From Bacilli bacterium (GTDB lineage: Bacteria > Bacillota_I > Bacilli_A > RFN20 > CAG-826), in assembly GCA_017445245.1 (NCBI GenBank), contig JAFSUM010000033.1, forward strand, positions 6,520 to 70,519: 64,000 nucleotides of DNA. Reading direction: 5' to 3'. Numbering within the stretch: the first letter of the stretch is position 1; the number at the start of each line of letters is the position of its first letter. A model generated the notes under the pieces. That model saw nothing but the letters and a program-made list of their open reading frames with translations. It made no database searches and was not told the origin of the DNA. Below, in pieces: positions 550-25,685 of this stretch. The position numbers and the translations under genes were made by a program.

Positions 550-660
550 ACTTAAAAAGCGGTATCAGACAATAAGTTCTACCGAAAGTAGAGAAAAAAT
601 GACGCGGATAATTTGCGTATAGACCTCTTTGCAAGGATGATTAAGGCGAAAGGAGCGACA

Positions 661-2853
661 ATGGAAAAGCAATACGAAATCGGCAATCTGATCACCGAGC
701 TCCGAAAAGAGAAGAAGCTGACCCAATCCAAACTTGCCGAAGCCCTGGGTGTCACGGACAAATCGGTCTCCAAATGGGAGAACGGGAAAAGCCTGCCTGA
801 CACGAAAATCATGCCGCGGCTTTGCGAAATCTTGGGGATCTCGCTCGAAGAGCTGCTTAACGGCAAGCTCAACCCTATCACGGAATCGCCCGTGCTGGAC
901 GATCTCCAGCGCCTTGAGCACGTCTATAAGTACTATTCCGACGAACATCGCGTGAACGTCGGCATCTCCGACATCAACCTAGCACTTAACCTCGGCGAAC
1001 GCGTCGCGATAACGGGTCCGTCCGGGTCCGGGAAGACGACGCTTCTTAAAATGATTGGTGGAATCGACCGCTTCGAGCGCGGCGAGATCTTCATCCGCAA
1101 AGAGGGTATTTCTCGCTTTGATGAGGAGGATTATGAGCTCTACCGCAAGGATTTCATCGCCTACATATTTCAGGAATACGGCGTCTTCGAAAACTATTCC
1201 CTGCTCGATAATCTCATCTTGGTTCGCCTCCTCATGGGCGATGCGTACAAAGAGGCCAAAGCCAAGGCGTTAGCCATGCTCGAAAAGGTTGGATTTGCGA
1301 AATTCGCCGGCAAAAAGGCCTCCAAATTATCCGGTGGACAAAAGCAAAAGCTTGCCGTTGCCCGCGCCCTGCTCAAGGATTCGCCAATCATCCTCGGGGA
1401 TGAGATTACCTCCTCGCTCGACAAGAAAAGCGCGAAGGAGGTGCTGCGTCTGCTCTTCGCTAACGCCAGCGGGAAACTCGTCGTCTTGGTCACGCACCAC
1501 TATGAAGAGGTCGAGGAGTTCTGCACGCGCAAGATCACCATGGCCGATGGAGGAATCGTGAAGGACGAGGTTCTGGAAATCGTCCCAAAGCAAGACCCTC
1601 GCGCGATTAGGCAACCCTCCAGAAAGCTTAATCCGCTACGCGCCCTAGGGATTTTGTTCCGAAATCGCGTGGGCTTAGGGCTCGCCCTCCTTTCCCTTTG
1701 CTTGATCCCGTCGGCCGCGATCGTCGGCGGCAACTACGGCCTGGACTACGCATACCAAACCACGTTGAAGGAGCCCACTACGCACCTTTTGAACGAAGAC
1801 GAGCTTTACGTCCGCAAGAAAGACGGCTTCGCTAACGGAGAGCTTTTAGAAATCGCCTCGAGATTCGAAGGGACGTGTTTTGCCCAAACCCATGCGAAAA
1901 CAGGCTTTTCCTATGTCGCCGATCCAAGCGTGCCCAAAGGAATCCGTTACACCCGCGCCCTCGATTCGGTCTTCGGGTTCAGCGTTCCAACTTCCCTCGC
2001 CGTTACCTTTGCCGAGAAACGCCTATCAGGGGAAAACGACGCCTATCCAGAACGTATATCAGTCGAGGATTATCTTGCCATTTTGCCCGCGTTGAATTAC
2101 TTCGGCAAAAAAGACAACAAGCCCATGCCGCCCCTGAAGCTGAAATACCGGCTGGGGGAGGAGGAGTTTGCGACCAACGTCGCCTGCGTAAATTTGCTGC
2201 CTGCGGACGAAACGCCGAAAATCCATGTTCGCCCAGGCCGTCTTCCCGACGGGGCAGAGCCGCTTTCGATTTCCTTTGCAGACGGAACGGAAGCCAGCGA
2301 TTTTGCTTTGGACGCAAGCCAGGACGGTTTGACCGCGATGTACGTGGGGTTCCCTCGCACGTATTTTTCCCACTTCGTTGGGGACGTAACGGAAATAAAC
2401 CTTCTATGCCCCACGGGAAAGAAGGCGGAGATGAAAAGGTCGTTGGCTAGCGACGGCTATGTCGTTATCTCCGCCGAGGACGAACTCGGCGGCATCAAGG
2501 GCAACGACGTTGCCTTCACAAACGAGGCGCTCTTCTCCCTTTTTTCGGTTTTGATCACGATCGCCCTTATTCCGCTAGCGCGGCGCTTCTCCTCCCTCAC
2601 GCTTCGGGGACAAAAGCACGAAGTGTATCTCTGGCGGCGGATCGGCTTTTCTAGCGAGGACGTGGAGGCGTCTTTCCTCGCGCTGCAGATGGTGCCGATG
2701 GCGGTGCTTGATGCCCTTTGCCTAGCCGGGGTTTGGTTCCTAGGCCTGGCTAGCCCGGCTTTGTTGACCCTTTCCCTGATCGAAATGGGGCTCCTAACCT
2801 ATTTCCTTTGGGTTGGAGACATCAAAGCCATGAGAAAGACGATGGAGGCGTAA
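661..2853 (+). CDS. XRE-HTH / ABC ATPase / FtsX-type permease triple fusion (MacB-like)
   Basis: GAAAGGAG Shine-Dalgarno 5 nt before the ATG at 661. The N-terminus LITELRKEKKLTQSKLAEALGVTDKSVSKWENGKSLP is XRE/HTH_3-like. ATPase motifs: Walker A GPSGSGKTT, signature LSGGQKQK, Walker B IILGDE, H-loop VTHH. These are followed by TM1, a roughly 300-aa extracytoplasmic domain and a C-terminal FtsX-like TM bundle (RGQKHEVYLWRRIGFS...). Confidence 0.75.
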   Translation: MEKQYEIGNLITELRKEKKLTQSKLAEALGVTDKSVSKWENGKSLPDTKIMPRLCEILGISLEELLNGKLNPITESPVLDDLQRLEHVYKYYSDEHRVNVGISDINLALNLGERVAITGPSGSGKTTLLKMIGGIDRFERGEIFIRKEGISRFDEEDYELYRKDFIAYIFQEYGVFENYSLLDNLILVRLLMGDAYKEAKAKALAMLEKVGFAKFAGKKASKLSGGQKQKLAVARALLKDSPIILGDEITSSLDKKSAKEVLRLLFANASGKLVVLVTHHYEEVEEFCTRKITMADGGIVKDEVLEIVPKQDPRAIRQPSRKLNPLRALGILFRNRVGLGLALLSLCLIPSAAIVGGNYGLDYAYQTTLKEPTTHLLNEDELYVRKKDGFANGELLEIASRFEGTCFAQTHAKTGFSYVADPSVPKGIRYTRALDSVFGFSVPTSLAVTFAEKRLSGENDAYPERISVEDYLAILPALNYFGKKDNKPMPPLKLKYRLGEEEFATNVACVNLLPADETPKIHVRPGRLPDGAEPLSISFADGTEASDFALDASQDGLTAMYVGFPRTYFSHFVGDVTEINLLCPTGKKAEMKRSLASDGYVVISAEDELGGIKGNDVAFTNEALFSLFSVLITIALIPLARRFSSLTLRGQKHEVYLWRRIGFSSEDVEASFLALQMVPMAVLDALCLAGVWFLGLASPALLTLSLIEMGLLTYFLWVGDIKAMRKTMEA

Positions 2854-2855
2854 CA

Positions 2856-4880
2856 ATGATCGAGCTAAGAAATGTAACCAAAATCTACGATGCCGGCGGC
2901 ATAGGCGAAACGGTTGGCGTTATAGACATCAATCTCAATATTGGCAATGCTGGCCTGGTGTCTTTCTTCGGCCCTTCCGGCTGCGGCAAGACCACGTTAC
3001 TTAACCTCATCGGCGGGCTAGACAAGCCTACGCGAGGGGAGGTGCTCATCGATGGCGAGACAGTCAATGACGCCTACCGACTAAACCACATCGGCTGTAT
3101 CTTCCAGGATTTCGTGCTCATGGAGTCCCTCACGGTCGCGGAAAACGTCCGCCTGCTTGATCGCTCCATCACCGACGCATCGATCAACGAAGTCCTTTCG
3201 AGCTTGGGAATAATGGGACTTAGGGACCGCAAGGCGGCGAAACTTTCCGGGGGCGAAAAACAACGCGTCTGCATCGCCCGCGCTCTCGTTGGCAAACCCG
3301 CTTTCCTCATCGCCGACGAGCCTACGGGCAACCTCGACGCAAGCAATCGCATCGGCATCATGCGTATCCTGAAGTCGATATCCAAGCACACCCTTGTCTT
3401 GCTGGTCTCCCACGAGAAGGACCTCGTCGAAGAATACAGCGACCGCATCATCAAATTGGAAGACGGGCGCGTCATCAGCGATTCCGTGGAGTCCCAAGCG
3501 GAAAACGATGCCTTCCCAAAGAGTCCGGGGCGAGAAACCGTTGTCCCCTTAAGGAAGACGAAGCGGAAAAGAGCCCGCGTTTTATCGGGCTTCCTTGCAA
3601 GCATCGCCATGGTGGCGTCTTGCTTTGCCGTGGGCTTGGCCTCTGGCAAGGCCGAGGCGTCCGACAACCTTCCTCAAAACGTTTACCACATGAGCGGCCC
3701 GCTCAAGGTCGAAGACCGCGTCGCACTTGCCCCGTTTGCTTACTTCAGGAATAGTCTAGAAACCCTTGGCCTAATCCTTGGCGATTCGCAAATCTCGCAG
3801 CATGAATTCTATGGAAGCGTTACCCTGCTCCCATTCGATTTCTATGACGGCAACGCTGACTGGCCATATGAGGAGGACGACGTCGTGATTACCCTAGGCG
3901 CCGCGCAAAGCCTGATTCAGAACTCCTATTCCTTGAACGGAACCTCCTATCGCAACTTAACACTCGGACAATATGGCGTGACATCGCCGGAGGATCTTGT
4001 CGGGATGCGGTTTAGAAACGGCTATTCGATCCGGAAAATAATCCCCGGAAGCGAAAACGTGGGATATGTTAATCCCCGCTCGTTCTATCGGGAAAACGCC
4101 TGGGTTAATTTGGGCACGGTCGACGAGCCGATTCATCTTTCCTTCACCTGTTATTCTTCTTTGGTTTTCCGCCGTCTTACCGGCATCGACGTCGGGGATG
4201 CGCGGATTGTTGTTTCCTCCTCCCACCCCCTTTCTTCGCACGGAAGCGTCGACATTGGAGGACAGCATTACTCCATCAAAATCTCTGCCGCGTTGGATGG
4301 TTTTGACGAAGCGGTGGTGCCTGTGTACCTCTCCTCTTATCTTCGCGGAGAAAGCATCGCCTCGGCCTATGCGTGGGACAATGGCTCGTTCCGAAAGTTG
4401 ATTGGTTCCTATAAGAAAGCGAACGCGGTTTCTTACTACGACATTGTTTTGGGTAGGATCAACCAAACGAAGACCGTTATTGCCGCGGTCTCGGGGGCTG
4501 TTGGGCTCGCCTTGCTGGCGGCTACCATATATTTCCACGCAATCGATCTGAGCCTTTATTTCCGAGAGAACAAGGACGAGTATGTCGTCTATCGCTGCCT
4601 TGGCGTTTCGCGCTCGCGCTTATATCGAAGAAGCCTGGCGGGCGCCGTTTTGGGTGCGATACCTCCCATTGCCGTTGGCTCGGTGGCGGGCGTGTTGGTT
4701 GTCGCTTTCCTTTGTCGGAACGAACAGGCCGCCTTGTTCTTATCGCTCAACATTGGCACGTTTGCCATTGGCGTCATCGCTGCATTGATTCTGGTGCTTT
4801 TGCTGTGCGCGGTACTTTTGATAGGCAAATTCTTACCTAATGCGGCCGAGTTCAAAAGAATTAATGGTCAATCTCAGTAG
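2856..4880 (+). CDS. ABC ATPase / FtsX-type permease fusion (MacB-like)
   Basis: GGAGG Shine-Dalgarno before the ATG at 2856, 2 nt after the upstream stop. ATPase motifs: Walker A GPSGCGKTT, LSGGEKQR, FLIADEPTGNLD, VSHE. TM1, a large external domain and a C-terminal FtsX-like segment (DEYVVYRCLGVSRSRL...) follow. Confidence 0.8.
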   Translation: MIELRNVTKIYDAGGIGETVGVIDINLNIGNAGLVSFFGPSGCGKTTLLNLIGGLDKPTRGEVLIDGETVNDAYRLNHIGCIFQDFVLMESLTVAENVRLLDRSITDASINEVLSSLGIMGLRDRKAAKLSGGEKQRVCIARALVGKPAFLIADEPTGNLDASNRIGIMRILKSISKHTLVLLVSHEKDLVEEYSDRIIKLEDGRVISDSVESQAENDAFPKSPGRETVVPLRKTKRKRARVLSGFLASIAMVASCFAVGLASGKAEASDNLPQNVYHMSGPLKVEDRVALAPFAYFRNSLETLGLILGDSQISQHEFYGSVTLLPFDFYDGNADWPYEEDDVVITLGAAQSLIQNSYSLNGTSYRNLTLGQYGVTSPEDLVGMRFRNGYSIRKIIPGSENVGYVNPRSFYRENAWVNLGTVDEPIHLSFTCYSSLVFRRLTGIDVGDARIVVSSSHPLSSHGSVDIGGQHYSIKISAALDGFDEAVVPVYLSSYLRGESIASAYAWDNGSFRKLIGSYKKANAVSYYDIVLGRINQTKTVIAAVSGAVGLALLAATIYFHAIDLSLYFRENKDEYVVYRCLGVSRSRLYRRSLAGAVLGAIPPIAVGSVAGVLVVAFLCRNEQAALFLSLNIGTFAIGVIAALILVLLLCAVLLIGKFLPNAAEFKRINGQSQ

Positions 4881-4969
4881 AACGAGACACACGCAAGTCG
4901 TAAAAAGCAGTTAGGAAGACTCTTATGTCTATCTTGTCCGCAAGAATGAGCGATGCCGAATATAAAACC

Positions 4970-5185
4970 TCATAGGGTGATGCGGACATAGGTGTCGTCG
5001 GAATCGATTTCCACCAAAGGTCTGCCCTTCATTAGCTTCTTGGATTCCTTTGCCTTTTTCAGAAAAGGAATGAGCCAAGGGTAATCGTCCGCCACCGCCT
5101 TCCTCAGTATCCATAGAGTTGCGCGTGTGGGCAAATGGAGAGAAAGCCGGAAGCCGGATTCCTTATCCCTGACCTTAAGTTTCAT
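4970..5185 (-). CDS. Small protein (71 aa), paralog of the C-terminal domain of the upstream XRE regulator
   Basis: Its start overlaps the stop of the 5182..5694 gene (ATGA). It shares FRLSLHLP... and LVEIDSDDTYVRITL with LRIQIT..VNVNLP and LIDIQSDDATIKIF of that neighbour. Confidence 0.45.
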   Translation of the reverse strand: MKLKVRDKESGFRLSLHLPTRATLWILRKAVADDYPWLIPFLKKAKESKKLMKGRPLVEIDSDDTYVRITL

Positions 5186-5694
5186 GAAATCCTTTCGGCA
5201 AAGATCTTTATGGTCGCGTCATCCGACTGGATATCGATGAGGTTGCCGAGCACGCCCTTTTCCACCAACGCGACCAATTTGCGGAAGTCGATGTTCTTTA
5301 CTTGTGGATTGTTGCCCAAATCGATGCTCAAGTGGCCGTCTTTGTCCATGATGAGTTCCAAAAGCTGGAGAGGAAGGTTTACGTTGACCTTCGCGTGATC
5401 TTCGTCGGTCGTCGTGATCTGGATGCGAAGGAAGAGGTTAGATAGGTCGATAGGGCCATCTTGGGGCTCGGCGAAGACGACCTTTTCTTTTTCTCTGCCG
5501 AGGAGTTCGTCGACGCTGACGTCGAGCAGTTCCGCGAGGGGAAGGAGGAGATCGATGTCGGGCATCGAGTCGCCGTTTTCCCATTTGGATACCGCTTGCG
5601 GTGAGACGTGTAACTTATCCGCGATATCGGATTGGGTAAGGCCTTTTTCTTTGCGAAGGGCAGCAAGCTTCTTTGCGAATTTTTTATTGTCCAT
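5182..5694 (-). CDS. XRE-family HTH transcriptional regulator with an uncharacterised C-terminal domain
   Basis: AAGGAGG Shine-Dalgarno. The N-terminus reads FAKKLAALRKEKGLTQSDIADKLHVSPQAVSKWENGDSMP. Confidence 0.8.
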   Translation of the reverse strand: MDNKKFAKKLAALRKEKGLTQSDIADKLHVSPQAVSKWENGDSMPDIDLLLPLAELLDVSVDELLGREKEKVVFAEPQDGPIDLSNLFLRIQITTTDEDHAKVNVNLPLQLLELIMDKDGHLSIDLGNNPQVKNIDFRKLVALVEKGVLGNLIDIQSDDATIKIFAERIS

Positions 5695-6052
5695 GGTTCG
5701 GACCTCCTTGCCATCATCTTAACGGGACGAACTAAAAAGAATGATTGAGCAGGAGTTGCTTTTGCACAACCATTGGTTGAAAAATCCCGCAACCGCAGGT
5801 TTCGTGAATATCACGTTTCATCTTAGATGAAAAATAATAACGCAACTGGTCGGAATCGAATAACATCCGGTTTTTTTGGATGATCTTTTTTATCGGTAGA
5901 GATCTTTTCGTCCTCGATGTCTGGGGGCTGCCATTTTGGCAATCGTGATGTTGTGGGCGATCCGCACAAAGCGGGATGGACAAAAGCGACCAGGCGAATA
6001 GACTAGCTGATGACAGTTAACGAAACCCCAAACTGGTCGCAAAGGAACTAGC

Positions 6053-6937
6053 ATGATGGAAAAATTAAGACTAAGAAGAAGCGCCCGCAAGGATTCGGAA
6101 CGGATCGAAAAACTCGTCTACGAACACTATTACAAACTCGTGCCTATGCTGGACGGTTTTAAACCCGAAGAGGAAACGGTCTGTAAGAAAGTAGTGGACA
6201 AAGACGGCAACATCATCGCCGGCTGCACGGGCTACGTTTTCCCTTGGGGCTGCATGTACATCGATGACATGTGGGTCGACGAGAGGTATCGCCGGCAAGA
6301 ACTGGGCTCAAACGCCCTTCAAGCCGTCGAGAAGGTCGCCGAAGAAAAAGGTTGCCATCTCATTTGGCTAGGAACGTGGGATTTCCAGGCAAAACCCTAT
6401 TATTTGAAGCATGGTTACACTCTTTTTGCCGAGGTTAACGATTGTCCGAAAGGCCATACGGACAACCATTTGTTCAAACGTTTAGACCAAGAACGAACCA
6501 TAAGGCCGTGCAAGCCGATCGAGTATGAAATATTGGACGGGTCGGAAGATGATGCCGAATATATCTGCGACCAACTCGACGACGGCTACAACGCCCCGAT
6601 TCTCAAACCGAAGCATGGGTACATCAAAATCAACAGAAAGCTAGTCGACGAAGACGGCAAAGTCGTCGCCGCTATTATGGCGGGGGTAAACGAAATAGAC
6701 GTTGCGTGGATTTGGAAAATCTGGGTCGAGGAAGACTACCGTGGTCAGGGACTCGGATCGTTGCTGGTTAGGCATTTCGAGAAAAAGGCAAAGGAAAAAG
6801 GCGCGACCAAGATCATATCTGAAGATATTTATGACTGGAACGTTGGTTTCTTCCAAAAGGCCGGATATAAGGTCGCGGGCGAACTGAAGGATTTGCCCAA
6901 AGGCCATAGCTTCTTTATCGTCGGGAAAGACATTTAA
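6053..6937 (+). CDS. Tandem-GNAT N-acetyltransferase (two GNAT domains)
   Basis: There are two acetyl-CoA-binding-type motifs: VDERYRRQELGSNAL and VEEDYRGQGLGSLLV. Each is followed by ...GY.. C-terminal strands. An AAAGGAA Shine-Dalgarno is present. Confidence 0.8.
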   Translation: MMEKLRLRRSARKDSERIEKLVYEHYYKLVPMLDGFKPEEETVCKKVVDKDGNIIAGCTGYVFPWGCMYIDDMWVDERYRRQELGSNALQAVEKVAEEKGCHLIWLGTWDFQAKPYYLKHGYTLFAEVNDCPKGHTDNHLFKRLDQERTIRPCKPIEYEILDGSEDDAEYICDQLDDGYNAPILKPKHGYIKINRKLVDEDGKVVAAIMAGVNEIDVAWIWKIWVEEDYRGQGLGSLLVRHFEKKAKEKGATKIISEDIYDWNVGFFQKAGYKVAGELKDLPKGHSFFIVGKDI

Positions 6938-7126: not shown

Positions 7127-10100
7127 ATGAAAAGTAGGGTTCTTGGTTCTGTTTCTGTTATTGCTTTGGCTTCGCTAGTTCTCTGCGCATCGCTTTTTGC
7201 TAATAAATCCGTAAGTGAAGTTATGGCGACCGACGACACGGTTTATTTTCGCCCCAATTCGCAATGGGCCATCGGCTCTTCGGTCAACCACTATGCGGCC
7301 TATCTGTGGAAAGGGGAGGGCACTAGCTTCCAAGACGCTTGGATCAATCTCAAGACCGGAACCAACGGTTATTACACATTGGCCCCGAAAGAAGGGTTCG
7401 AGAACCTCATCTTCTGCGTGATGAAAAGCGCGACCAACAGCTGGGACAATGTCCGTTACCAGACCGCCGACCTCAAAATCAACGTTCACGACGCTGATTG
7501 CTTTGCTCTTTACAACCACCGCGCCGAAGAAAAGAAAACGCAAGGGGCGTGGCATACTCTTGGCGAGACTTTACCCGCCGGTGGAGGACAAGAGAATGTC
7601 GCTGGAACCAAAAACGGCACCTTTTATCAATTGCTGGTCTATTCTTTTGCTGACGGCAACGGAGATGGGGTGGGGGACTTCAAAGGCATCATCGACCATC
7701 TCGACTATTTAAAGAACCTCGGCATCAGCGGTCTTTGGCTTTCGCCCATCCAAAAGGCTGGAAGTTACCATGGCTATGACATTCTTGACTACTATGCCGT
7801 AAACCCCGAATACGAAGTCACGGTCGACGGGGTCAAATACGATTTGGCCAAACTCATCACCGAATGCCATAACATTGGCATCAAGGTCATCCTCGACCTC
7901 GTCTTGAATCATTGCTCCTATGGCCACCCGTGGATTACCGAACATCCCAGTTGGTTTACCAATGACCCTGCCTTTGACGGGATGAAGGACTTTAATCTCA
8001 ATAACTCCCAGGTGAACGCCGAACTTAAGAAAATCGGCAAATATTGGCTTACCGAATACGAACTCGATGGCTATCGCCTCGACGCGGTGAAATGGCTCTT
8101 CAATTCGGGTGGCATGAGCTCCGCGGATGATGCGCGCAACATCAACTGGCTCACCAGCTTCTATAACTACTGCAGAACCGAGGCGGGGCGCGACATCTTC
8201 ATGGTCGGCGAAAACTATACGTTCGATTCCGGCGAGCTCGCTTATTATCACAAGCCTTTGGATTCCTCGTTCAACTTCAACGCGATTACCGCCGCATCCG
8301 ACGCCTATGAAAACGGAAACGCGAAAGGCTATGTAACGACGATGACGAACTTTTATTCGAACGTCCATAGCCAAAATAGCAACGCACGCCTTGCCAATTT
8401 CCTTTCCAACCACGACGCAGGTCGCTTCTTCTTGTCGAATCCAGGCGTGGAGAAATACCTCTTCATGAGTTACTTAAACCTGCTTTCTCCCGGCAATTCC
8501 TTTGTCTATTATGGCGACGAGCTTAATCTGCAAGCGTCCGTCACCTACGACAACACCGTGCATAGTTCCGGCTACGAGGATTTCCTCCATCGGACTCCGA
8601 TGCCCTTTGCCACCGGACACACCAACATGGGCACCTATCTACACGGCTTCTCTGATTCCTATCGTCCCTACGTTTCCAATACCTCGGTGCCTCTAACCGG
8701 CGGGACAGCGGATTCTACCGCCTCGGAAATCGCTTCCTTCTATACGGCTTATTCCGAAGCCATCCGCGCTAAAAACGCGGCACCCGTGCTTTATGACGGC
8801 GTCATTTCTTCCAACAACATCGCCGATAACCGTTTGGGTTCTTATGTCGCGAGCAAAGGCGGAAAAGCGGCGACCGTCATCTTCAACGCCTCCCACGATT
8901 GGATTACCTTGCAGATTGATGGGGCGACTACCTCTATCCTCGGCGCGGCCTCTTTCCATGGCCGTCCGACGTTGGAAAGCAACATCCTGACCATCGCCCC
9001 TCTTTCGGGCACGGTACTAAACGGTTCGCATACCTTCTCCGTCTATTCGGGCAGCGTCGATCCTGGCGAAGATCCCGATCCGGGCACGGGGATGCAGATC
9101 TATCTCCGCGGCAGCTTCAATTCCTGGGGCACGCCTTCGAACGCCTTATTCCAAGCTGCGCCCAAAGGAAGCGACTATGACTATTGCCTCCTCAACGTCT
9201 ATATCGCTAAGGGGCAGGAATTCAAAGTCGCCACCGAAGACTGGAGCACCGTGTGCCTAGGCTATTACGATGGGAACACCAGCTTCGGCGACATGGGCGA
9301 CTATTTTTACGAGCACGGCATCGAAAACGACAACATCAAATGCACTGCAAGCGGCTATTACGATTTCTGGCTGACCAAAGGGACGATGTACATCACCCCA
9401 TTCAAAGCCCACGCCGCAAGCCTTTATGGATCGTGGAACGGATGGAAGGCCGGCCTTTCTGCCGAAACGCTGAACCCATGGAATACTTATGTTATCCACG
9501 ACGTCCCCTTAAAAGCCGGCGAAGAGGCGCAGATGTGGGTGCAGGAGTGGGATGGCGAGTACACGTGCTACCTCGTTTTGAAAGATGCGGCGGACATCAC
9601 TTCGCCTGCCGGGCACGCCTTTGTTCCCTCTAGCAACGGCAGGAACATCGAGGCTACCGTGGCGGGAACTTATGACATCGAGGTCATCGCGAACGGTTGG
9701 AACGAATATGGGATTACCTGCTACTACGTGATTACCATGAGCGACTCGGTCCCCGCGGAGGCTATCAACTTCGCCAAATCGTTCAATAACCAAATCGGCG
9801 CGGCATGCGACATTACCGGCAATAGTGACAAAGACACCGTCGTTGCGGCTTGGGCCGCGATGGAAGAGGCCTTCAACGATCTTTCTGCAGAAGCCCAGAC
9901 CGCTTTGAAAGAAGCGACCGCGGATAGTCCCGACGAAGACATGGCTGCCTTCGCGGCCAAATATCGCTCCGTCTATGCCCTTCGTGGGACGATGTGGAGC
10001 CTTAGCAATTTCTTAGACATCGATGTACTTAGTGCGTTTGCCGTTTCGCCGCACGTTGGACAAACCGACGGCAGGCTTATCGCCTTGCTATCCTGCGCGT

Positions 10101-10159
10101 CTATTGGCGTCTTGCTAAGCGGGGCCCTTGTTCTCGTCTATCGGAAACGCAAAGCATAA
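7127..10159 (+). CDS. Secreted GH13 alpha-amylase-family enzyme with starch/glycogen-binding-like modules and a C-terminal membrane anchor
   Basis: Signal peptide present. GH13 regions: GDFKGIIDHLDYLKNLGISGLWLSPI, VILDLVLNHCS, GYRLDAVKW, MVGENY and FLSNHDAGR. CBM-like repeats occur (VYFRPNSQW..., IYLRGSFNSWG...). The protein ends in a hydrophobic helix followed by RKRKA. Confidence 0.85.
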   Translation: MKSRVLGSVSVIALASLVLCASLFANKSVSEVMATDDTVYFRPNSQWAIGSSVNHYAAYLWKGEGTSFQDAWINLKTGTNGYYTLAPKEGFENLIFCVMKSATNSWDNVRYQTADLKINVHDADCFALYNHRAEEKKTQGAWHTLGETLPAGGGQENVAGTKNGTFYQLLVYSFADGNGDGVGDFKGIIDHLDYLKNLGISGLWLSPIQKAGSYHGYDILDYYAVNPEYEVTVDGVKYDLAKLITECHNIGIKVILDLVLNHCSYGHPWITEHPSWFTNDPAFDGMKDFNLNNSQVNAELKKIGKYWLTEYELDGYRLDAVKWLFNSGGMSSADDARNINWLTSFYNYCRTEAGRDIFMVGENYTFDSGELAYYHKPLDSSFNFNAITAASDAYENGNAKGYVTTMTNFYSNVHSQNSNARLANFLSNHDAGRFFLSNPGVEKYLFMSYLNLLSPGNSFVYYGDELNLQASVTYDNTVHSSGYEDFLHRTPMPFATGHTNMGTYLHGFSDSYRPYVSNTSVPLTGGTADSTASEIASFYTAYSEAIRAKNAAPVLYDGVISSNNIADNRLGSYVASKGGKAATVIFNASHDWITLQIDGATTSILGAASFHGRPTLESNILTIAPLSGTVLNGSHTFSVYSGSVDPGEDPDPGTGMQIYLRGSFNSWGTPSNALFQAAPKGSDYDYCLLNVYIAKGQEFKVATEDWSTVCLGYYDGNTSFGDMGDYFYEHGIENDNIKCTASGYYDFWLTKGTMYITPFKAHAASLYGSWNGWKAGLSAETLNPWNTYVIHDVPLKAGEEAQMWVQEWDGEYTCYLVLKDAADITSPAGHAFVPSSNGRNIEATVAGTYDIEVIANGWNEYGITCYYVITMSDSVPAEAINFAKSFNNQIGAACDITGNSDKDTVVAAWAAMEEAFNDLSAEAQTALKEATADSPDEDMAAFAAKYRSVYALRGTMWSLSNFLDIDVLSAFAVSPHVGQTDGRLIALLSCASIGVLLSGALVLVYRKRKA

Positions 10160-10299
10160 AAGCCTGCAAAAAGCGACTTATGTTGAGTTCTGAATGTTTT
10201 TCGTCGAATTGCGCGCCTTTTAGCAAAGCCAAAAGGACGTAATAGCACGCGAATAATGTCCTCATGTATAATATTTCCATACCACGTGGGGGCATATAT

Positions 10300-13200
10300 A
10301 TGAAAAAACGACCACTATTTGCGTTAATGGGGGTTTTGCTGTTGTCTCTTTCTGCCTGCGGTGATGATAATCCGCCGGAAGAATCCTCTAGCAGCGAACC
10401 CGCATCTAGCCAATCTTCCGTCGCTGAGACGTCGGAAACTCCTTCTAGCGAATCCCAGGAACCTAGTAGCAGTTCCTCTAGGCCGAGCTCTTCTAGCTCT
10501 TCGCAAAGGCCTTCTTCTAGCCAGGAGCCTTCTTCGGAACCGACCCCGGGACCAGAACCCGAGCCCTCTTCCGAGTCTTCTTCGACTAGACCTAGCAGCT
10601 CTGGCACGAAGGAATCGAGCGAACCGGAACCCTCTTCCGAACCGCAGCCGTCTAGCAGCGAAGCGCCGTCCTCAGAACCTGAGCCGTCCTCGGAACCAGA
10701 ACCGGAACCTTCTTCTGAGCCTTCCTCCGAATCTTCTAGTGCAGAACCTGTGTACGACTTTGTCGAATTCGTGTGGACATTCGCCGACGGGGTTTATACC
10801 GCCAAGGCAAAATACGTTTCCGACCAGGACCCTTCCGATGTGCATTTGTTCGATGCGGAGATGTCTTACAAGGTCAAATTAGAGCCGACGTGCGAAGAAA
10901 AAGGCATCGGCGTCTTCACCGCTTCCTACGATGGCCATACGGATACTCGCGAAGTCGATATCGATCCCATTAGCCACGACTATAAGTTCGACTCCTTCGT
11001 CTGGGCCGAAGATTATTCCGCCCAAGCCAAGTACGTCTGCGCCCACGACGCCGAACACGTGAAGTACTACACGGCGGAAGTGGACGAAGAAGTGATCCGC
11101 GTCGCGACCTACGATCGGACGGGCTTTATCCGCTATACCGCCTCCTTCGAAGGCCATAGTGAGACCAAAGACCGCGAAACCGATGCCCTCTCTCCGTTCA
11201 CCTTCGAATTGAACGAAGACGGGACAGCCTACACCATCACCAAAATCGATAATCTCGATAACATGGAACTCTTGGTAATTCCCGCCGAATACGAAGGGCT
11301 CCCCGTCACCGCGATCGCCGACAATGTGGCCAATAACGCGCAGAGTCTCCGTAGGGTCGTCTTCCCCGAGACGCTTACTTCCATCGGCACGGGCTTCCTC
11401 GCCAATGCGCAAAAGCTCTCCTACGTCTATTTGCCCAAGACCATTCAGTCCATCGGGTCTTTGACCTTTGGCTATAGCCCGCGTGCCGTCTTTGTTTCCG
11501 ATGCGCCTTCCCGTCCATCCACGTGGAAATTCTCGACCTCCTATACCGCCTATTATGGATGTACGGAGGGCGCGAATCTCTTCACCGTTGACGGTGTTGT
11601 TTATAAGAAAACCGATGCAGGTCTCACCGTAATTGCTTCCGATCCGCTTCAAGTAGGCGGAGACGGCATCCTCTCTATCGGCGGCGAAACTCATAAAGTC
11701 ACCGTCGGTGAAGAAGCCCTTCCCGTCATCGGCATCAACATCTATGCCTTCTTCGGCGTTAACCGCGCCATCGTGGAACTCGATAGCTCTCTAACCATTG
11801 CCAACAATGCGTTTTACGATTGCACTGCGATGACGATTTACGCTCATGCCAGCTTCTCTTCCATCAGCAACGACAGCTCGCAAATCTACCGCGCCCCGAC
11901 GACTGCGGGAGACATCGTCCTCGAAAACGATTGGTATGGCGTCATCGCCAGCGGCCAGGCCGTGTTGCTCCATTACATTGGTGATGAATATGACATCACG
12001 ATCCCGACCTCCTTCATGGAAAACGGCGTTTCTACCGTCGCAGGTCACGCCATTTCGGGCAAAACCCTCCGTTCCATTTATGTTTCGTCCGCCATCCCCG
12101 CTCTCGAGCAATATGCGTTCGTCGTCAGCAACATCGCCTTGATGATGGATGCCGACAAGACCCCGTCTGGCTGGTCTTCCTTCGTGAGCGGTTCCAACAA
12201 TAGATACTATTACCGCGTTACCGAGGATAGTTTTATCGAGCACGACGGTGCCATCTACGTCGCCCATTACGATTCGTGGTACGAGAGGACCTATTTGGGC
12301 TTCTTCCGCCTCGTCGACCCTGAGTGTCAGGCCTTCGTCATCGCCGATGAGATTCTCGTCGGAGAAGAAAATCTGTCCGTCAAATCGATTCTTCCCAACG
12401 CTTTTATCGATAGCAGCGTCACCTGCGTCTACATCCCTAGAGACGTCGACACTATCTACAGCGATCCGGGCCTTACCAACGGCAAAGTGGGCTCCGTCAT
12501 CGTCTATACCAATGCTTCGGACCGTCCGAGCGGATGGAATACCAGCGCGATTTCAGGCCTCACGATTTGCTATGGCCAATCGATCGATAGCCTCTCTGGC
12601 CTCTTCATCAAAGACGGCCTTATCTATCAAACAATCGATAACGAAGGCGTCAAAACCTTGACGGTTCTCGGCTATCAGGGCGAGCAGCCTTCTGCGCTCG
12701 TCGTCCCTGATATCGTCGCTACCGAACAAGGCGACCTTCCCGTCACCGCCATCGGCGAACGGGCCTTCTATGGGATCAAAGGTGTTTCTAGCGTCACGCT
12801 GTCTGGCGTCGTCGAACTCGGGGCCTATGCTTTCGGCTCTTCTTCCATCGAAACGATCGACTTGGGGGATAGCCTCCAATCCATCGCCAACTATGCGTTC
12901 TATCAGTGCCATGACCTCGCCGAAGTTCACTTCCCGGAGAACACCCTCCGTCAAATCGGCACGGACGCGTTCTATTACTGCACCTCGCTACGTGAAGTGC
13001 ATATGCCTGCTTCGGTGACTTCCTTCGGCAACTATTGCTTTGGCAGCTGCAGCAATCTCGTTACCTTCACCTTCCCCGATGAATTCGAGGGTGAAATCCC
13101 GTCTTCCATGTTCTCCAACGACGGAGCCCTTACGGAAATCGTCATCCCCAGAGGCGTAACTTCCATCGGCTATGAGGCCTTCTCTGGTTGTTCTGGCCTA

Positions 13201-16125
13201 ATGAAAGTCAAAATCAGCGAAGGCGTGCAGTCGATTGGAGCCAACTGCTTCTCGAATTGTTCCTCCTTAATGCGCCTCGACATTCCCCTTTCCGTCACCT
13301 CTGTTGGCAACTATGCCTTCTCCGGTTTCACCAGCGCTTCGACCATCTTCATTGAAGCGACTAGCGTCTCCTGGAGCTACAACTGGAAATCCAATTGCCA
13401 AGCCAAAATCGTCTACGGCGTCATTCCCGATGGCGAGGGCAGCGCGGACGGCTTCTTCTATTACCTCAGTCAAGACTGCGCCTTCCTTGCGGGCGTCGAT
13501 AGTTCCATCACGGGTGAAGTGGTGGTTCCCGAAAATGTCGTCATCGATGGCAAACAGTATAAGGTCCGCAAAATCTTAGCCGGCGCCTTCAAGAACAACA
13601 CCTCCATCACCAGAGTCACCTTGCCCGAAGGCATCACCGCGATCGGCGACGAGGCTTTCTATGGCTGCAGCAACCTGACGGAGATCAACTTGCCCGAAGG
13701 CCTTGTCTCCATCGGCGATTCCGCCTTCTATAGCTGCAAGTCCCTCGCGGAACTCATCGTTCCCGATTCCTGCACCTCCCTTGGCAGACTCTTCATCCAA
13801 TACACCGCTTTGAAGAAAATCAGCATCCCCATGATGGATCGCCGCTACAGCGAATACTTCAATTCGGGCACGATTCCCGCCCTCTTCATCGTCCGCGGTG
13901 GGGCCCTTCCCGATAATGCGTTCTCCGGTTCTGCTCCCCAGGCGATCGAACTCTATGAAGGCGTCACGGCTATCGGCGCCAGCGCGTTCGCAAACGTTAG
14001 CAACATCTATCGTCTTATCGTTCCCGCTTCTGTGGAAACGGTCGGCAAAGGCGCCTTTAATGGCGCGGGTAATCTGACGGTCTATTTCCGGGCCAATGAG
14101 GCTGGCGCTTCTTGGGCTTCCGGCTGGAATACCGGCATGAACAAGGCCGTCTTCGGCTTCAACACCGACAACAAGGAAGTCTACGCTTCTGGCATCCATT
14201 ACCTTGTCGAGGAAGACCACGTGTCCGTTGTCTATTTCGATGGCGACGCCACGCAGGTCGATCTCCCCGCCGAAATCCGTGGCCTCCCCGTCACCCGCGT
14301 CGAAATTCAGGCGTTCCAAAACCAGGCGAACGTCAAAGTCATCACGGTGCCCAATACTGTAACCTTCATCGGCAAAGGTGCCTTCATGGGCTGCAGCGGC
14401 CTTGAGACGCTACGTGTCCCCTTCCTAGGCCAAGGCATCGGCAAAGAAAACTATCTCTGCTATTTCTTCACCGTCGGCGATCTCGCCTATTACACCACCG
14501 ACGACCAGCGCGGTGCGGTCATCCCCGCTTCGCTGCTCTACCTTCGCATCGATGGCGGCGCCCTCGTCGATAGTGCCTTTGGCGGTTCCGCTCACCTCAA
14601 AAAAATCACCTTGGGTGACAGCATCACGCGCTTTGGCTCCAACCTCTTTAGCGGTTGCACGTCCCTCGAATATAACCGCGATATCGACAGCGATAGCCCA
14701 ACCCAGCAGAACTACCTGGATTACATCGGCACCGAAAGTAACCCCTACATGGTGCTGGTAAAGCTCGACTACTGCGGTAAGGGAACCGTCCGCGTCCACG
14801 CAGACTGCGAAATCATCTATCAGGAGGCCTTTGCCAATAACACGAAGGCCCGCGTGGTCGTTTTGCCAGACGGCATAAAGGCCATCGGCATGAGGGCTTT
14901 CTACAACACCAACATCTATTCGGTGAACCTCCCCGATTCCATCACCTCCATCGGCAGTTACGCCTTCTCGAAGTCTTCGCTGCAGGGTGCCTACTTTGGC
15001 GAAGAGTCGCAGTGCACCTCCATCGATAACTACGCCTTCTACGATATCGTCGCCCTCGAAGGCCTGACCTTGCCCGGCCACATTTCGACCATCGGCAGCT
15101 ACGCCTTCTCCAAGACTTCGCTCACCCACATCGATGTTCCCGCTTCCTGCACCTATGTTTACACAGGCGCCTTCTCGGATGTCTATAACAGCTCCACCGT
15201 CTTCGTCTACGTTCCGTCTACGACCTGCGTGCAGTCGAAGGCCTTCGCCAATCTAGGCAATGCCCGCATCGTTACGGATGCCGACACCACGCCGAAGATC
15301 TGGGTCAGCGACTGGAATAGCGGCAGCACGAATGTCCGTTACGGCATCACCCACGACCGTATTTGCACTTCTGGTGACGTCGTTTACATCGTCGGCTATT
15401 ACGGAACGACCGGTGAAGCCATCGCCCCCGCGCCCGTCGCCTCGACCTATGCGGCCGGATCGCGTGATCTCGTCATCCCCAACCAGGTCATCCAAGGCGA
15501 ACGCCCGGCCTTCACGGTCACGGAAATCGCCCCGTACGCTTTCTATGGCTGCCTCTGGCTGAAATCCATCAGCTTTGAGGATGCCGCGGTGGAAATCGTC
15601 GGCGAATACGCCTTCTATAACTGCACCAACGTCACGAGCTGCGTGTTGAATGACGCAATGTATTACATCGGCAATCATGCCTTCTACGCCCTTAACGATG
15701 CGGCCTACACCGCGAAGAACTACATTATCTATGTCGGTTCTTCCAGCAATCCGTATCTGCTATGTATCGGCGCGAACCGTTCGTTCTCGGGTGGCACCGT
15801 GACGATTGAAAATGGCTGCAAATTCATCGATAGCTATGCCTTCTATCAGCGCAGCGTCTCCTCGGTGACCTTGCCCGCCGGCCTTCTCGGTATTTGGGAG
15901 TCGGCCTTTGCGGACAACTCGGCGTTGGCCGGCAAGACCATTTTCATCCCTGGCAGCGTCCTCTACATGGGCCAATGCATCTTCCAATATAACCGCGGCA
16001 TGAGCTTGTATCTCCGTTGCGGCGCCTCATCGCGTCCTAGCGGTTGGAGCGAAGCCTGGAACTACAAGAACAACCCCATCATCAGCACGGATACCTATAG
16101 CACCACTTGGGGCGTCAGCGCCTAA
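10300..16125 (+). CDS. Giant surface lipoprotein with BspA-type leucine-rich repeats
   Basis: The signal peptide MKKRPLFALMGVLLLSLSAC carries a lipobox. An S/P/E-rich linker follows. After that come dozens of repeats of the form IP..VTSIG..AF..C..L..I. Confidence 0.8.
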   Translation: MKKRPLFALMGVLLLSLSACGDDNPPEESSSSEPASSQSSVAETSETPSSESQEPSSSSSRPSSSSSSQRPSSSQEPSSEPTPGPEPEPSSESSSTRPSSSGTKESSEPEPSSEPQPSSSEAPSSEPEPSSEPEPEPSSEPSSESSSAEPVYDFVEFVWTFADGVYTAKAKYVSDQDPSDVHLFDAEMSYKVKLEPTCEEKGIGVFTASYDGHTDTREVDIDPISHDYKFDSFVWAEDYSAQAKYVCAHDAEHVKYYTAEVDEEVIRVATYDRTGFIRYTASFEGHSETKDRETDALSPFTFELNEDGTAYTITKIDNLDNMELLVIPAEYEGLPVTAIADNVANNAQSLRRVVFPETLTSIGTGFLANAQKLSYVYLPKTIQSIGSLTFGYSPRAVFVSDAPSRPSTWKFSTSYTAYYGCTEGANLFTVDGVVYKKTDAGLTVIASDPLQVGGDGILSIGGETHKVTVGEEALPVIGINIYAFFGVNRAIVELDSSLTIANNAFYDCTAMTIYAHASFSSISNDSSQIYRAPTTAGDIVLENDWYGVIASGQAVLLHYIGDEYDITIPTSFMENGVSTVAGHAISGKTLRSIYVSSAIPALEQYAFVVSNIALMMDADKTPSGWSSFVSGSNNRYYYRVTEDSFIEHDGAIYVAHYDSWYERTYLGFFRLVDPECQAFVIADEILVGEENLSVKSILPNAFIDSSVTCVYIPRDVDTIYSDPGLTNGKVGSVIVYTNASDRPSGWNTSAISGLTICYGQSIDSLSGLFIKDGLIYQTIDNEGVKTLTVLGYQGEQPSALVVPDIVATEQGDLPVTAIGERAFYGIKGVSSVTLSGVVELGAYAFGSSSIETIDLGDSLQSIANYAFYQCHDLAEVHFPENTLRQIGTDAFYYCTSLREVHMPASVTSFGNYCFGSCSNLVTFTFPDEFEGEIPSSMFSNDGALTEIVIPRGVTSIGYEAFSGCSGLMKVKISEGVQSIGANCFSNCSSLMRLDIPLSVTSVGNYAFSGFTSASTIFIEATSVSWSYNWKSNCQAKIVYGVIPDGEGSADGFFYYLSQDCAFLAGVDSSITGEVVVPENVVIDGKQYKVRKILAGAFKNNTSITRVTLPEGITAIGDEAFYGCSNLTEINLPEGLVSIGDSAFYSCKSLAELIVPDSCTSLGRLFIQYTALKKISIPMMDRRYSEYFNSGTIPALFIVRGGALPDNAFSGSAPQAIELYEGVTAIGASAFANVSNIYRLIVPASVETVGKGAFNGAGNLTVYFRANEAGASWASGWNTGMNKAVFGFNTDNKEVYASGIHYLVEEDHVSVVYFDGDATQVDLPAEIRGLPVTRVEIQAFQNQANVKVITVPNTVTFIGKGAFMGCSGLETLRVPFLGQGIGKENYLCYFFTVGDLAYYTTDDQRGAVIPASLLYLRIDGGALVDSAFGGSAHLKKITLGDSITRFGSNLFSGCTSLEYNRDIDSDSPTQQNYLDYIGTESNPYMVLVKLDYCGKGTVRVHADCEIIYQEAFANNTKARVVVLPDGIKAIGMRAFYNTNIYSVNLPDSITSIGSYAFSKSSLQGAYFGEESQCTSIDNYAFYDIVALEGLTLPGHISTIGSYAFSKTSLTHIDVPASCTYVYTGAFSDVYNSSTVFVYVPSTTCVQSKAFANLGNARIVTDADTTPKIWVSDWNSGSTNVRYGITHDRICTSGDVVYIVGYYGTTGEAIAPAPVASTYAAGSRDLVIPNQVIQGERPAFTVTEIAPYAFYGCLWLKSISFEDAAVEIVGEYAFYNCTNVTSCVLNDAMYYIGNHAFYALNDAAYTAKNYIIYVGSSSNPYLLCIGANRSFSGGTVTIENGCKFIDSYAFYQRSVSSVTLPAGLLGIWESAFADNSALAGKTIFIPGSVLYMGQCIFQYNRGMSLYLRCGASSRPSGWSEAWNYKNNPIISTDTYSTTWGVSA
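10360..10746 (+). repeat. Low-complexity Ser/Pro/Glu-rich linker (SSEPEP-type) inside the LRR lipoprotein gene
   Basis: The translation reads ...SSSSEPASSQSS...EPEPSSEPQPSSSEAPSSEPEPSSEPEPEPSSEPSSESSS. Confidence 0.85.
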
Positions 16126-21744: not shown

Positions 21745-22491
21745 ATGTTAAAAGAAGCACGCCTTAATCAGATTCTCGAAGCGGTCAACGAGCGGAAGTA
21801 CATGTCCCTCCGCGCTTTGATGGACCTCACCAATAGCAGCGAATCCACGATTCGCGCAGACCTTATCGAATTATCCAAAGCAGGGAAGATCTATCGCCTT
21901 CGCGGCGGCGCCCAAGCCATCAATAATGAAAGCTTTTCTTTTGAATTGTCCCTCGAAGATAAGATGGGAATTCGCTTGGCCGAAAAGAAAGCCATCGCCC
22001 GCAAGGCGCTTACTCTTATTCGTCCGAACACGATTCTCTATTTCGACGCAGGAACGTCTACGTATGCTCTTGCAGAGGAACTCGATGTCCCTGGCGTAAA
22101 GGTGGTCACCAATTCCGTCTATTTGGCCCGTAAGGTCATTTCCAAGGGCTACAAGGCTTATGTCATCGGTGGGGAGTTCAAGTCCTCGACCGACGCGTTT
22201 ATCGGTCCCATGGCGCAAGAAATCCTCTCGCGCTTCCACTTTGATATCGGGTTTTTCGGCACGAACGGAATCCATTTGGAGCAGGGGTGCACGACCCCTG
22301 ACGTAGAGGAAGCCGCGATCAAGCAAAAGGCCATGAACCAATGCGAGGAAGCTTATATCCTCGCGGACTCTTCCAAGTTCGGCGTCATCACCAGCGTGAG
22401 CTTCCATTCCTTCGATCCCGAGCACATCATCACCGACCATATCGAAAAAGACGAATTCAAGAACCTTGGTATTTTGGAGGCCAAAGCATGA
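21745..22491 (+). CDS. fruR: DeoR-family transcriptional regulator of the fructose operon
   Basis: The N-terminus is a DeoR HTH (RLNQILEAVNERKYMSLRALMDLTNSSESTIRADLIELSKAGKIYRLRGGA) and the C-terminus a sugar-phosphate-binding domain. It is the first gene of the fruK/fruA cluster. Confidence 0.85.
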   Translation: MLKEARLNQILEAVNERKYMSLRALMDLTNSSESTIRADLIELSKAGKIYRLRGGAQAINNESFSFELSLEDKMGIRLAEKKAIARKALTLIRPNTILYFDAGTSTYALAEELDVPGVKVVTNSVYLARKVISKGYKAYVIGGEFKSSTDAFIGPMAQEILSRFHFDIGFFGTNGIHLEQGCTTPDVEEAAIKQKAMNQCEEAYILADSSKFGVITSVSFHSFDPEHIITDHIEKDEFKNLGILEAKA

Positions 22492-23390: not shown

Positions 23391-23404
23391 AAAGGAGGAT
23401 AAGC

Positions 23405-25408: not shown

Positions 25409-25426
25409 TATAAAGGAGCATATACC

Positions 25427-25684
25427 ATGAAATCGTTCACCTACGTCATCACCGACAAAGAAGGCATCCACGCCAGACCCGCCGGCCTCGTCGTGGCCGA
25501 AGCCAAGAAATTCGCCTCCGCCATCACCATCGAAAACAAAGGTAAGAAAGCCGACCTCAAGCGCATCTTCGGCGTCATGTCCCTCTGCGTCAAAAACGGC
25601 GAAGAAGTCGTGATCACCTGCGACGGCGCCGACGAAGAAACCGCTTCTGCCGCTGTCGAAAAAGTCTTCAAGGAAAATCTCTAA
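25427..25684 (+). CDS. ptsH: HPr-like phosphocarrier protein with His15 present and regulatory Ser46 replaced by Arg
   Basis: GIHARPA contains His15. At the position of the canonical LKSIMGVMSLG the protein reads DLKRIFGVMSLC. Confidence 0.85.
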   Translation: MKSFTYVITDKEGIHARPAGLVVAEAKKFASAITIENKGKKADLKRIFGVMSLCVKNGEEVVITCDGADEETASAAVEKVFKENL

Positions 25685-25685
25685 T

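Follow-up and report, generated by a model that had tools for sequence, protein, structure and literature searches.

A predicted MacB-fold ABC transporter subunit with its own helix-turn-helix domain and a conserved candidate operator in uncultured Bacilli

The DNA considered here is a stretch of 64,000 nucleotides (the window) of contig JAFSUM010000033.1 from the Bacilli bacterium assembly GCA_017445245.1, and the subject of the analysis is a pair of adjacent plus-strand genes close to its beginning, together with the DNA directly upstream of them. Gene 1 (661-2853) extends from ATG 661 to the stop codon TAA at 2851-2853 and encodes a protein of 730 aa. In a single polypeptide it is predicted to combine a helix-turn-helix (HTH) domain, an ATP-binding cassette (ABC) ATPase or nucleotide-binding domain (NBD), a first transmembrane helix (TM1), a large external domain, and a bundle of three further helices (TM2-TM4), that is, a MacB-type half transporter with a DNA-binding domain. 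Gene 2 (2856-4880, 674 aa) has the same build without the HTH and is the presumed partner half transporter; its ATG at 2856 follows the stop codon of gene 1 after two nucleotides (CA). An earlier reading of the sequence alone (the original prediction) had described both the composite architecture of gene 1 and the position and build of gene 2. Both descriptions are upheld by Pfam matches, structure models, and hydropathy, and for gene 1 also by the recurrence of the architecture in 36 protein clusters.

The start of gene 1 deserves comment, since public gene callers used the in-frame starts upstream of ATG 661, ATG 637 yielding a protein of 738 aa (P0001) and TTG 613 one of 746 aa (P0002). In the family alignment, all other members begin at a MEKxYEIGN position that corresponds to ATG 661. 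A ribosome-binding site (AAGGAG, 650-655, plus strand), read from the sequence, ends 5 nt before this codon, and sites of the GGAG/GAGG type occupy the equivalent position in all family loci. As the family alignment and the ribosome-binding site both favour it, ATG 661 is the preferred start.

The N-terminal domain of gene 1 is a Cro/C1-type (XRE) HTH (661-870, residues 1-70) with the recognition helix ...DKSVSKWENG. It matches Pfam HTH_3 over residues 13-65 (E 1.9e-15, 57.1 bits against a cut-off of 23) and is modelled as five helices (residues 2-17, 22-29, 33-40, 51-58, and 62-67) with predicted local distance difference test (pLDDT) values of 89-96. The closest solved structures include 434 repressor, P22 C2, PezA, and SinR; judged from its sequence, the domain is of the canonical DNA-binding type. 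It is joined by a short flexible linker of 12 residues (871-906, residues 71-82), in which residues 73-79 (pLDDT <50) form the sole disordered stretch of the model, to the ABC ATPase domain (907-1575, residues 83-305). The latter matches Pfam ABC_tran over residues 103-251 (E 1.9e-28) and carries Walker A at residues 119-126, Q171, LSGGQ at 223-227, D247-E248, and H279. TM1 follows at 1669-1767 (residues 337-369 as a model helix, approximately 337-355 by hydropathy), then an extracytoplasmic alpha/beta domain of about 245 aa (1768-2502, residues 370-614) and the TM2-TM4 bundle (2503-2847, residues 615-729), which is FtsX-like by fold. The AlphaFold2 model, built from an alignment of 95 sequences (pLDDT 88.7, predicted template modelling score 0.68), contains long helices at residues 337-369, 615-649, 665-694, and 699-729, with the mixed alpha/beta domain inserted between the first two, and the hydropathy profile likewise displays TM1 plus a C-terminal hydrophobic bundle.

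Gene 2 is divided correspondingly into an NBD (2856-3482, residues 1-209), TM1 (3567-3644, residues 238-263), an external domain (3645-4433, residues 264-526), and TM2-4 (4434-4829, residues 527-658). Pfam recognises ABC_tran at residues 24-157 and FtsX (PF02687) at residues 549-655 (E 3.7e-7, 30.7 bits against a cut-off of 25.5), and the AlphaFold2 model (pLDDT 85.6) places long helices at residues 238-263, 527-571, 586-619, and 633-658. According to the models, with which hydropathy agrees, each protomer of the pair thus has four TM helices, the first two of which are separated by a large extracytoplasmic domain. The ATPase motifs had been described as intact in both proteins, and this holds: Walker A, the Q-loop, LSGGQ/LSGGE, the Walker B D-E pair, the D-loop, and the H-loop are all present in both, and they are invariant in alignments of 32 and of 95 gene 1 homologues and of 20 gene 2 homologues.

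The label "MacB-type", also taken from the original prediction, stands in part. Fold and topology agree with it: the top Protein Data Bank matches of the gene 1 model are full-length MacB chains (5GKO, 5LIL, 5LJ7, and 5NIK; E 1e-26 to 1e-21 over 689-736 columns), and full-length MacB is also the best match of the gene 2 model (E 1e-27). Orthology to MacB is not borne out, as neither protein has a MacB_PCD match, a MacA/TolC-like partner is missing, and the pair looks heterodimeric. The domain scan that had been suggested gave a correspondingly mixed result. HTH_3 (gene 1), ABC_tran (both genes), and FtsX (gene 2) were detected; MacB_PCD (PF12704) was found in neither protein and FtsX (PF02687) not in gene 1, for which Pfam matches were accepted at E<=0.01. 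The FtsX assignment of gene 1 is therefore one by structure prediction, and the external domains of both proteins are, as far as their sequences tell, not recognisable as MacB_PCD. Among about 120 homologues listed, a single one (P0083) carries MacB_PCD. In NCBIfam, the ATPase domains match models for LolD, FtsE, DevA, bacteriocin export, and MacB-type proteins, all below threshold. No gene for an HlyD/membrane fusion protein or an outer membrane factor was found in the neighbourhood of the pair in the window or in seven related loci.

Several observations bear on how the two proteins belong together. They share 34% identity, which is confined to the ATPase, and orthologues of gene 2 are located on the same contigs as orthologues of gene 1. 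Relatives without HTH, with ATPases 43-54% identical, likewise occur in A+B pairs, the first member usually without and the second with a Pfam FtsX match. Since these HTH-less paralogues are paired as well, an A:B heterodimer is the most economical and most likely reading of the pair. Concerning the substrate, peptide or envelope-related functions would be compatible with the ATPase models that come nearest and with the external domain being hypervariable.

Proteins that combine HTH and ABC domains in a single chain form a family that is, on sequence evidence, small but genuine. A search of 5.8 billion clustered proteins retrieved 36 clusters (at 90% identity), which are 36-100% identical and mostly 707-768 aa long, with a few partial sequences down to 467 aa. 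They come from ENA, NCBI, JGI, and Logan assemblies, and their source annotation, where given, is only "ATP-binding cassette domain-containing protein" from metagenome-assembled genomes of Bacilli or Anaeroplasmataceae. A filter-free HMMER search with residues 1-310 against 1.84 billion representatives at 50% identity returned seven that match HTH and ATPase contiguously. Further matches in two separate stretches were considered as HTH+NBD proteins and rejected, being tandem-ATPase proteins. A scan of GTDB genomes added, among the matches listed, one further family member (L002, a species representative labelled Mollicutes), the others being mostly generic ABC ATPases.

Within the family, the junction between HTH and ATPase is conserved (LDDLxRLEHVYKYY), and the tether between the two domains is short and of conserved length. 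Mean pairwise identity amounts to 71% for the HTH, 70% for the ATPase, 42% for the linker, about 30% for the TM parts, and 20% for the external domain; given the near-equality of the first two values, the HTH appears to be as tightly constrained as the catalytic domain. The family alignment contains no conserved methionine in the linker or at the ATPase start. With the same reading frame throughout the 36 clusters, this speaks for a single product and effectively disposes of the concern, voiced with the original prediction, that the HTH might be split off by a frameshift or an internal start at the ATPase.

A survey of such fusions and their neighbours, also proposed earlier, found the partner gene in every locus examined. 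On six further contigs an ABC+FtsX gene comes directly after the gene with the HTH, overlapping it or starting a few bases past its stop codon. The flanks of the gene pair differ in every locus and include genes for TsaEBD, a tRNA synthetase, a DEAD helicase, spore germination, and a C1 peptidase. The module is, by this comparison of gene orders, apparently a self-contained two-gene unit. Neither a histidine kinase nor a response regulator was found among the open reading frames (ORFs) of at least 200 aa near the module or among the called genes of the related loci. No stand-alone HTH gene that could represent a precursor of the fusion was found upstream of the closest HTH-less paralogue pair (L211).

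Upstream of gene 1 lies the palindrome TTCTAC-CGAAA-GTAGA (577-592), centred 76 bp before ATG 661 and assigned to neither strand. Its inner part, TCTAC-N5-GTAGA at 578-592, had been put forward in the original prediction as a candidate operator, and the comparison of related loci strengthens this proposal considerably. Upstream DNA is available for seven family genes, and the 300 nt before each of them were compared; TTCTAC-N5-GTAGA is present in all seven, centred 76-85 bp before the start codon, and neither the 64 kb window nor any of the related loci contains a second exact copy. The upstream regions are otherwise unalignable: only the palindrome arms are invariant, and the spacers vary (CGAAA, CAAAA, GTTTC). 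A lone 5+5 repeat would be weak evidence, and it is the conservation across loci that marks the palindrome as more than chance. All four HTH-less paralogue loci lack it, three of them (L208-L210) in exact and symmetric-variant form and the fourth (L211) even with one mismatch allowed.

A broader view was obtained from about 970 kb of DNA that had been fetched independently of the motif; the statistics use only such loci. The exact sequence TCTAC-N5-GTAGA occurs ten times in this set, and all ten occurrences lie 60-110 nt upstream of genes for HTH proteins of the SKWENG type. Allowing for symmetric variants, a T-N-Y-A-C-N5-G-T-R-N-A palindrome lies at most 200 nt upstream of 11 of the 14 SKWENG-type HTH genes in the set. 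The half-sites are spaced by 10 bp, as in the operators of phages 434 and P22. Base-specific DNA recognition by a dimeric HTH predicts just such a pattern, and the candidate operator can be regarded as a strong phylogenetic footprint whose occurrence is tied to that of the HTH. An interpretation as RNA hairpin was considered and rejected, as the 6-bp hairpin is weak (-4.2 kcal/mol, z -2.05) and displays neither covariation nor compensatory arm changes; arms that stay invariant in this way, together with the weak hairpin, fit base-specific protein recognition and not RNA structure. A scan of a metagenome collection with the 16-mer TTCTACCAAAAGTAGA returned, among the 120 matches listed, mostly chance occurrences inside coding DNA of unrelated marine and soil contigs; it does not represent an unbiased sample and is informative only for the intergenic subset.

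The same kind of palindrome accompanies this HTH into other architectures. T-N-Y-A-C-N5-G-T-R-N-A-like 5+5 palindromes with a 5-nt spacer are located at -50 to -110 of genes whose products start with an XRE HTH that contains ...K(A/S)(V/I)SKWENG. They take the forms TCTAC/GTAGA, TATAC/GTATA, and TCCAC/GTGGA, with an asymmetric one-mismatch version, TCTAC/GTGGA, in L066 (approximately 4909-4923); another is found in L014 (approximately 5856-5870). Their occurrence is indifferent to the C-terminal part of the HTH protein. In L018 (4924-4939) the palindrome precedes a 150-aa protein consisting of an HTH and two TM helices. In L035 (4858-4872) TCTAC-N5-GTAGA stands before a gene for an HTH_3-FtsX permease that is followed by a separate ATPase, and in L007 (approximately 1358-1372) and L015 (approximately 1459-1473) TATAC-N5-GTATA stands before an HTH-ATPase gene that is followed by a separate ABC-2 permease. 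HTH_3-AAA_28 proteins of about 445 aa (L113, 1347-2675, and also L117, L154, L173, L197, L106, and L132) have it about 72 nt upstream. The HTH-FtsX proteins represented by L035 (4968-7478) form a family of about 100 clusters from Lachnospiraceae, in which the HTH is attached directly to an FtsX-type permease (about 580 aa) and an ABC ATPase is encoded separately behind it; they are annotated only as "helix-turn-helix domain-containing protein". One HTH class is thus joined to three kinds of ABC transporter part, namely NBD plus transmembrane domain (TMD), FtsX permease alone, and NBD alone.

Some further arrangements were noted among these loci. In L092, L125, and L136 the palindrome lies 58 nt before the gene of a cysteine-containing protein of about 180 aa that precedes the HTH gene. 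L185 displays the same palindrome-to-small-gene arrangement, with no downstream HTH gene found on that short contig. L137 encodes a 180-aa HTH protein, similar to a second HTH protein of the window (5182-5694) that is treated below, and has a palindrome with 9-bp arms. No description of a TCTAC/GTAGA operator or of a rule connecting SKWENG-type HTHs with such palindromes was found in the literature searched.

Taken together, these data suggest the following explanation. Genes 1 and 2 would form a translationally coupled two-gene operon of an uncultured Bacilli-class bacterium (Anaeroplasmataceae/Mollicutes-labelled) and would most likely encode a heterodimeric MacB-fold (type VII) ABC transporter. 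The HTH of subunit 1, held N-terminal to the ATPase on a tether of about 12 residues, would recognise TTCTAC-N5-GTAGA about 76 bp before its own start codon, so that the transporter, as a membrane-tethered regulator, would control the transcription of its own operon. For the explanation as a whole, a self-contained operon whose transporter regulates it from the membrane via the subunit-1 HTH and the palindrome, a probability of roughly 60% is assigned. Its parts differ in strength: the co-occurrence of HTH and site across loci and architectures makes it very probable that the gene 1 HTH binds the palindrome, and autoregulation of the operon is scarcely less so.

The two half-sites lie one helical turn apart, and occupancy would need two HTHs together. 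Because the isolated domain has no dimerisation module, their pairing should have to come from the transporter body. The two HTHs may be supplied by two transporter complexes side by side or by a homodimer of subunit 1; in the relatives that consist of HTH and ATPase only, pairing could possibly be brought about by ATP-dependent dimerisation of the ATPases. Given the need for two HTHs, DNA binding would depend on the assembly state, the density, or the conformation of the transporter. The favoured extension of the explanation is that the HTH becomes more or less available through ATP-driven motion of the ATPase, or through substrate at the variable external domain, which would lead to need-based synthesis of the pump. 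Such a coupling of promoter occupancy to transporter activity is put forward tentatively, at somewhat less than even odds. Rather doubtful is the most specific version, in which the closing and opening of the ATPase in each transport cycle sets the distance or availability of the HTHs, occupancy reads activity without kinase, second messenger, or separate regulator, the protein being a flux sensor in one polypeptide, and this design has arisen repeatedly.

Several points weigh against the proposed explanation. The stoichiometry is awkward: a palindrome with two half-sites implies two HTHs, of which a heterodimer has only one to offer. That palindrome and HTH go together is a co-occurrence, which does not identify the binding protein. 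Against a background of 0.004 palindromes per 200 nt, the nominal binomial probability of the association is about 4e-24, a value that is overstated, since some of the loci are related and about eight independent lineages are represented. Scans with consensus promoters placed no promoter relative to the palindrome, so that repression and activation are not separable. Every family member is known from metagenome assemblies. Moreover, the window encodes a second SKWENG-type XRE HTH protein (5182-5694, minus strand, 170 aa, HTH_3 E 4.9e-19). Its gene lies 2.3 kb downstream of the gene 1 stop codon, is divergent from a double-GNAT gene (6053-6937), and has no TNYAC-N5-GTRNA palindrome within 358 nt upstream.

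As to the promoter, a possible sigma-70-type element, TTGCGT-17 nt-GATGAT (613-641, plus strand), was read by eye; it is weak and of low confidence. L082 has TTGCCA-17-CATGAT at the same distance from the start codon, and L001 has TTGCCC at -49. Should the element at 613-641 be real, the palindrome near -63 would occupy an activator-like position, which is speculative.

Among the competing explanations, static dosage control has the greatest weight and is nevertheless considered unlikely. According to it, the HTH binds the operator and exerts simple negative feedback on the amount of transporter, with no signal from substrate, ATP hydrolysis, or conformation. All evidence on operator and HTH fits it equally well, and coupling is barely better than concentration-dependent negative feedback at explaining the data. 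Autoregulation is generally known as the commonest role of XRE-type HTHs, the palindrome also precedes HTH proteins with unrelated C-terminal parts and so says nothing on transport, and two HTHs from separate complexes would by themselves make occupancy concentration-dependent. What static control accommodates less easily is the independent fusion of the HTH to three different transporter parts, along with the short ATPase tether of conserved length. Such recurrence suggests that the physical link between HTH and transporter matters, and the fusions are easier to understand if it does; signal coupling is not proven thereby.

A regulator that is anchored and then released is improbable. Here, a protease would cut the linker (residues 71-82) upon a signal and free a soluble repressor or activator, in keeping with the generally known principle of proteolytic freeing of membrane-tethered regulators and with the linker being the only disordered segment of the model. 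The linker is short, however, no protease gene is conserved beside the module, and the freed HTH of 70 residues would have no dimerisation domain with which to occupy a palindrome; the intact and conserved ATPase motifs also indicate that the protein is no mere anchor.

It is at least as improbable that the HTH does not bind the palindrome at all and serves protein contacts (like the HTH of RodZ, which contacts MreB) or non-specific DNA binding, the site belonging to another soluble regulator, a promoter, or an RNA element. The 170-aa HTH protein at 5182-5694 would be a candidate for such a regulator, and the palindrome could form the small RNA hairpin mentioned above. Yet the gene of this neighbour is not conserved beside the module in other loci, the arms of the palindrome never vary and the hairpin is weak. 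The palindrome, moreover, is found in 7/7 HTH-bearing as against 0/4 HTH-less paralogue loci, and it accompanies HTHs of this type in unrelated architectures and taxa. A frameshift from sequencing or assembly that joined a regulator gene to an ATPase gene, for which only the rarity of the architecture speaks, is effectively refuted by the continuous frame in clusters from four assembly sources, by the conserved junction, and by the fact that no family member has a separate HTH gene.

The surroundings of the module are of some interest in their own right. Upstream, a minus-strand ORF (1-483, the 5' part with 161 codons, continuing beyond the window edge) has no Pfam match; it contains ASNRIEGN, an S-x-x-x-E-G-N motif which we take to resemble the inhibitory helix of Fic proteins. 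Between this AT-rich ORF and the palindrome lies a perfect tandem repeat, TTTCACTATTT x 3.2 (514-548), that does not occur in related loci. Base composition changes sharply here: the first approximately 560 bases have a G+C content of 28-37%, the rest of the region 52-57%, and the DNA at 1-600 next to the module may be foreign. Toxin-antitoxin or defence-type genes often lie within 5 kb of the module in the flanks of related loci: HipA in L085, Fic and AAA_21 in L086, AAA_13 in L084, SLFN_AlbA_2/HATPase_c_4 in L001, and a Schlafen-like helicase with nSTAND3 in L087. The module may thus sit in variable genomic islands. The possibility that it is itself an anti-phage defence system was considered and rejected, as PADLOC reported only generic similarities of the ATPase (mad3) and the HTH (RmrA, capH) and no system-level match. 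Downstream of the module, the window encodes two very large predicted surface proteins (7127-16125), namely a 1010-aa alpha-amylase with a C-terminal hydrophobic anchor and a 1953-aa BspA-type leucine-rich-repeat protein (LRR_5 E 1e-158). An ordinary fructose-type phosphotransferase system cluster (DeoR regulator, PfkB kinase, EIIA-IIB-IIC fusion, and enzyme I) at 21745-27329 is unrelated to the module.

To our knowledge, only a few relays, each made up of several proteins, are known by which the workload of a transporter is reported to gene expression; BceAB-BceS, PtsG-Mlc, and MalK-MalT are examples. If the proposed explanation is true, a transporter subunit with its own sequence-specific DNA-binding domain would represent the shortest possible route from transport to transcription. 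The system is compact, consisting of two genes and one site, and could be rebuilt in a model host. That one HTH per heterodimer faces an operator with two half-sites bears on the question of how membrane-bound regulators find and hold DNA. The reach of the finding is limited by the narrow taxonomic range of the family, all members of which come from uncultured organisms. The SKWENG subclass of XRE regulators, for its part, is very common in Firmicutes-like bacteria, and the T-N-Y-A-C-N5-G-T-R-N-A rule may be used to predict operators and regulons.

Among known transporters, the closest in structure is MacB (from E. coli, A. actinomycetemcomitans, and A. baumannii), the type VII "mechanotransmission" transporter, in which ATPase, TM1, a large external domain, and TM2-4 are likewise arranged in one chain. 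MacB forms a homodimer that works with MacA and TolC in Gram-negative bacteria; it possesses a recognisable MacB_PCD and has no DNA-binding domain. Unlike MacB, the pair described here consists of two different subunits without MacB_PCD match, has no adaptor genes nearby, and carries an HTH on one subunit. With NCBIfam MacB scores of 126-129 bits against a cut-off of 966, and with no external domain signature, no homodimer, and no partners of the MacA/TolC kind, the pair falls outside MacB proper.

By its structure, gene 1 also corresponds to the definition of a transmembrane transcription regulator (TTR), i.e. a protein whose polypeptide contains one or more TM segments along with a DNA-binding domain. 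A survey of about 50,000 such proteins published in 2023 recorded 4523 with HTH_3, 72 with FtsX, 76 with MacB_PCD, and one with ABC_tran, in a supplementary table only and without discussion, and regulation from the membrane is accepted for TTRs such as BcrR, CadC, and ToxR (PMC10269533). The HTH_3-FtsX fusions of Lachnospiraceae (L035) probably account for the 72 FtsX-containing proteins of that survey. They share with gene 1 the SKWENG-type HTH, the palindrome, and a type VII component, and differ in that the HTH is attached to the permease instead of the ATPase. BcrR of Enterococcus faecalis, with an N-terminal XRE-type HTH and four TM helices, controls an ABC transporter operon from the membrane and resembles gene 1 in having HTH and TM helices in one chain. 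BcrR is a sensor only, however, and its transporter BcrAB is separate, whereas the membrane part of gene 1 is a transporter half, with an active-looking ATPase between HTH and membrane.

A functional parallel, already drawn in the original prediction, is offered by BceAB-BceRS of Bacillus subtilis, where a type VII-related ABC transporter determines by its activity how strongly its own genes are transcribed (PMC6978683; Fritz et al. 2015 PMC4513084). In that system the ATPase is separate, the permease has 10 TM helices, and signalling runs through BceS, a histidine kinase, to the regulator BceR. Nothing of this has a counterpart here, where the ATPase is fused and each chain has four TM helices; the likeness is one of functional analogy only, and activity coupling in the present case is a proposal. 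HAAS domains, as noted computationally, link FtsX-like TM modules with MacB_PCD to a PadR transcription factor (PMC6978683; PMC11237479), which is a separate protein, unlike the fused HTH of gene 1. The trigger enzyme PutA, finally, combines in one polypeptide a DNA-binding autoregulator (a repressor) and a membrane-associated catalyst, as gene 1 may do; it is a peripheral enzyme with a ribbon-helix-helix domain and not a transporter. The statement of the original prediction that no characterised example was known still holds, as literature searches for HTH-ABC transporter or HTH-MacB fusions found no paper on one. Compared with all these systems, gene 1 probably represents a previously uncharacterised membrane-bound one-component regulator whose membrane part is a full ABC transporter half.

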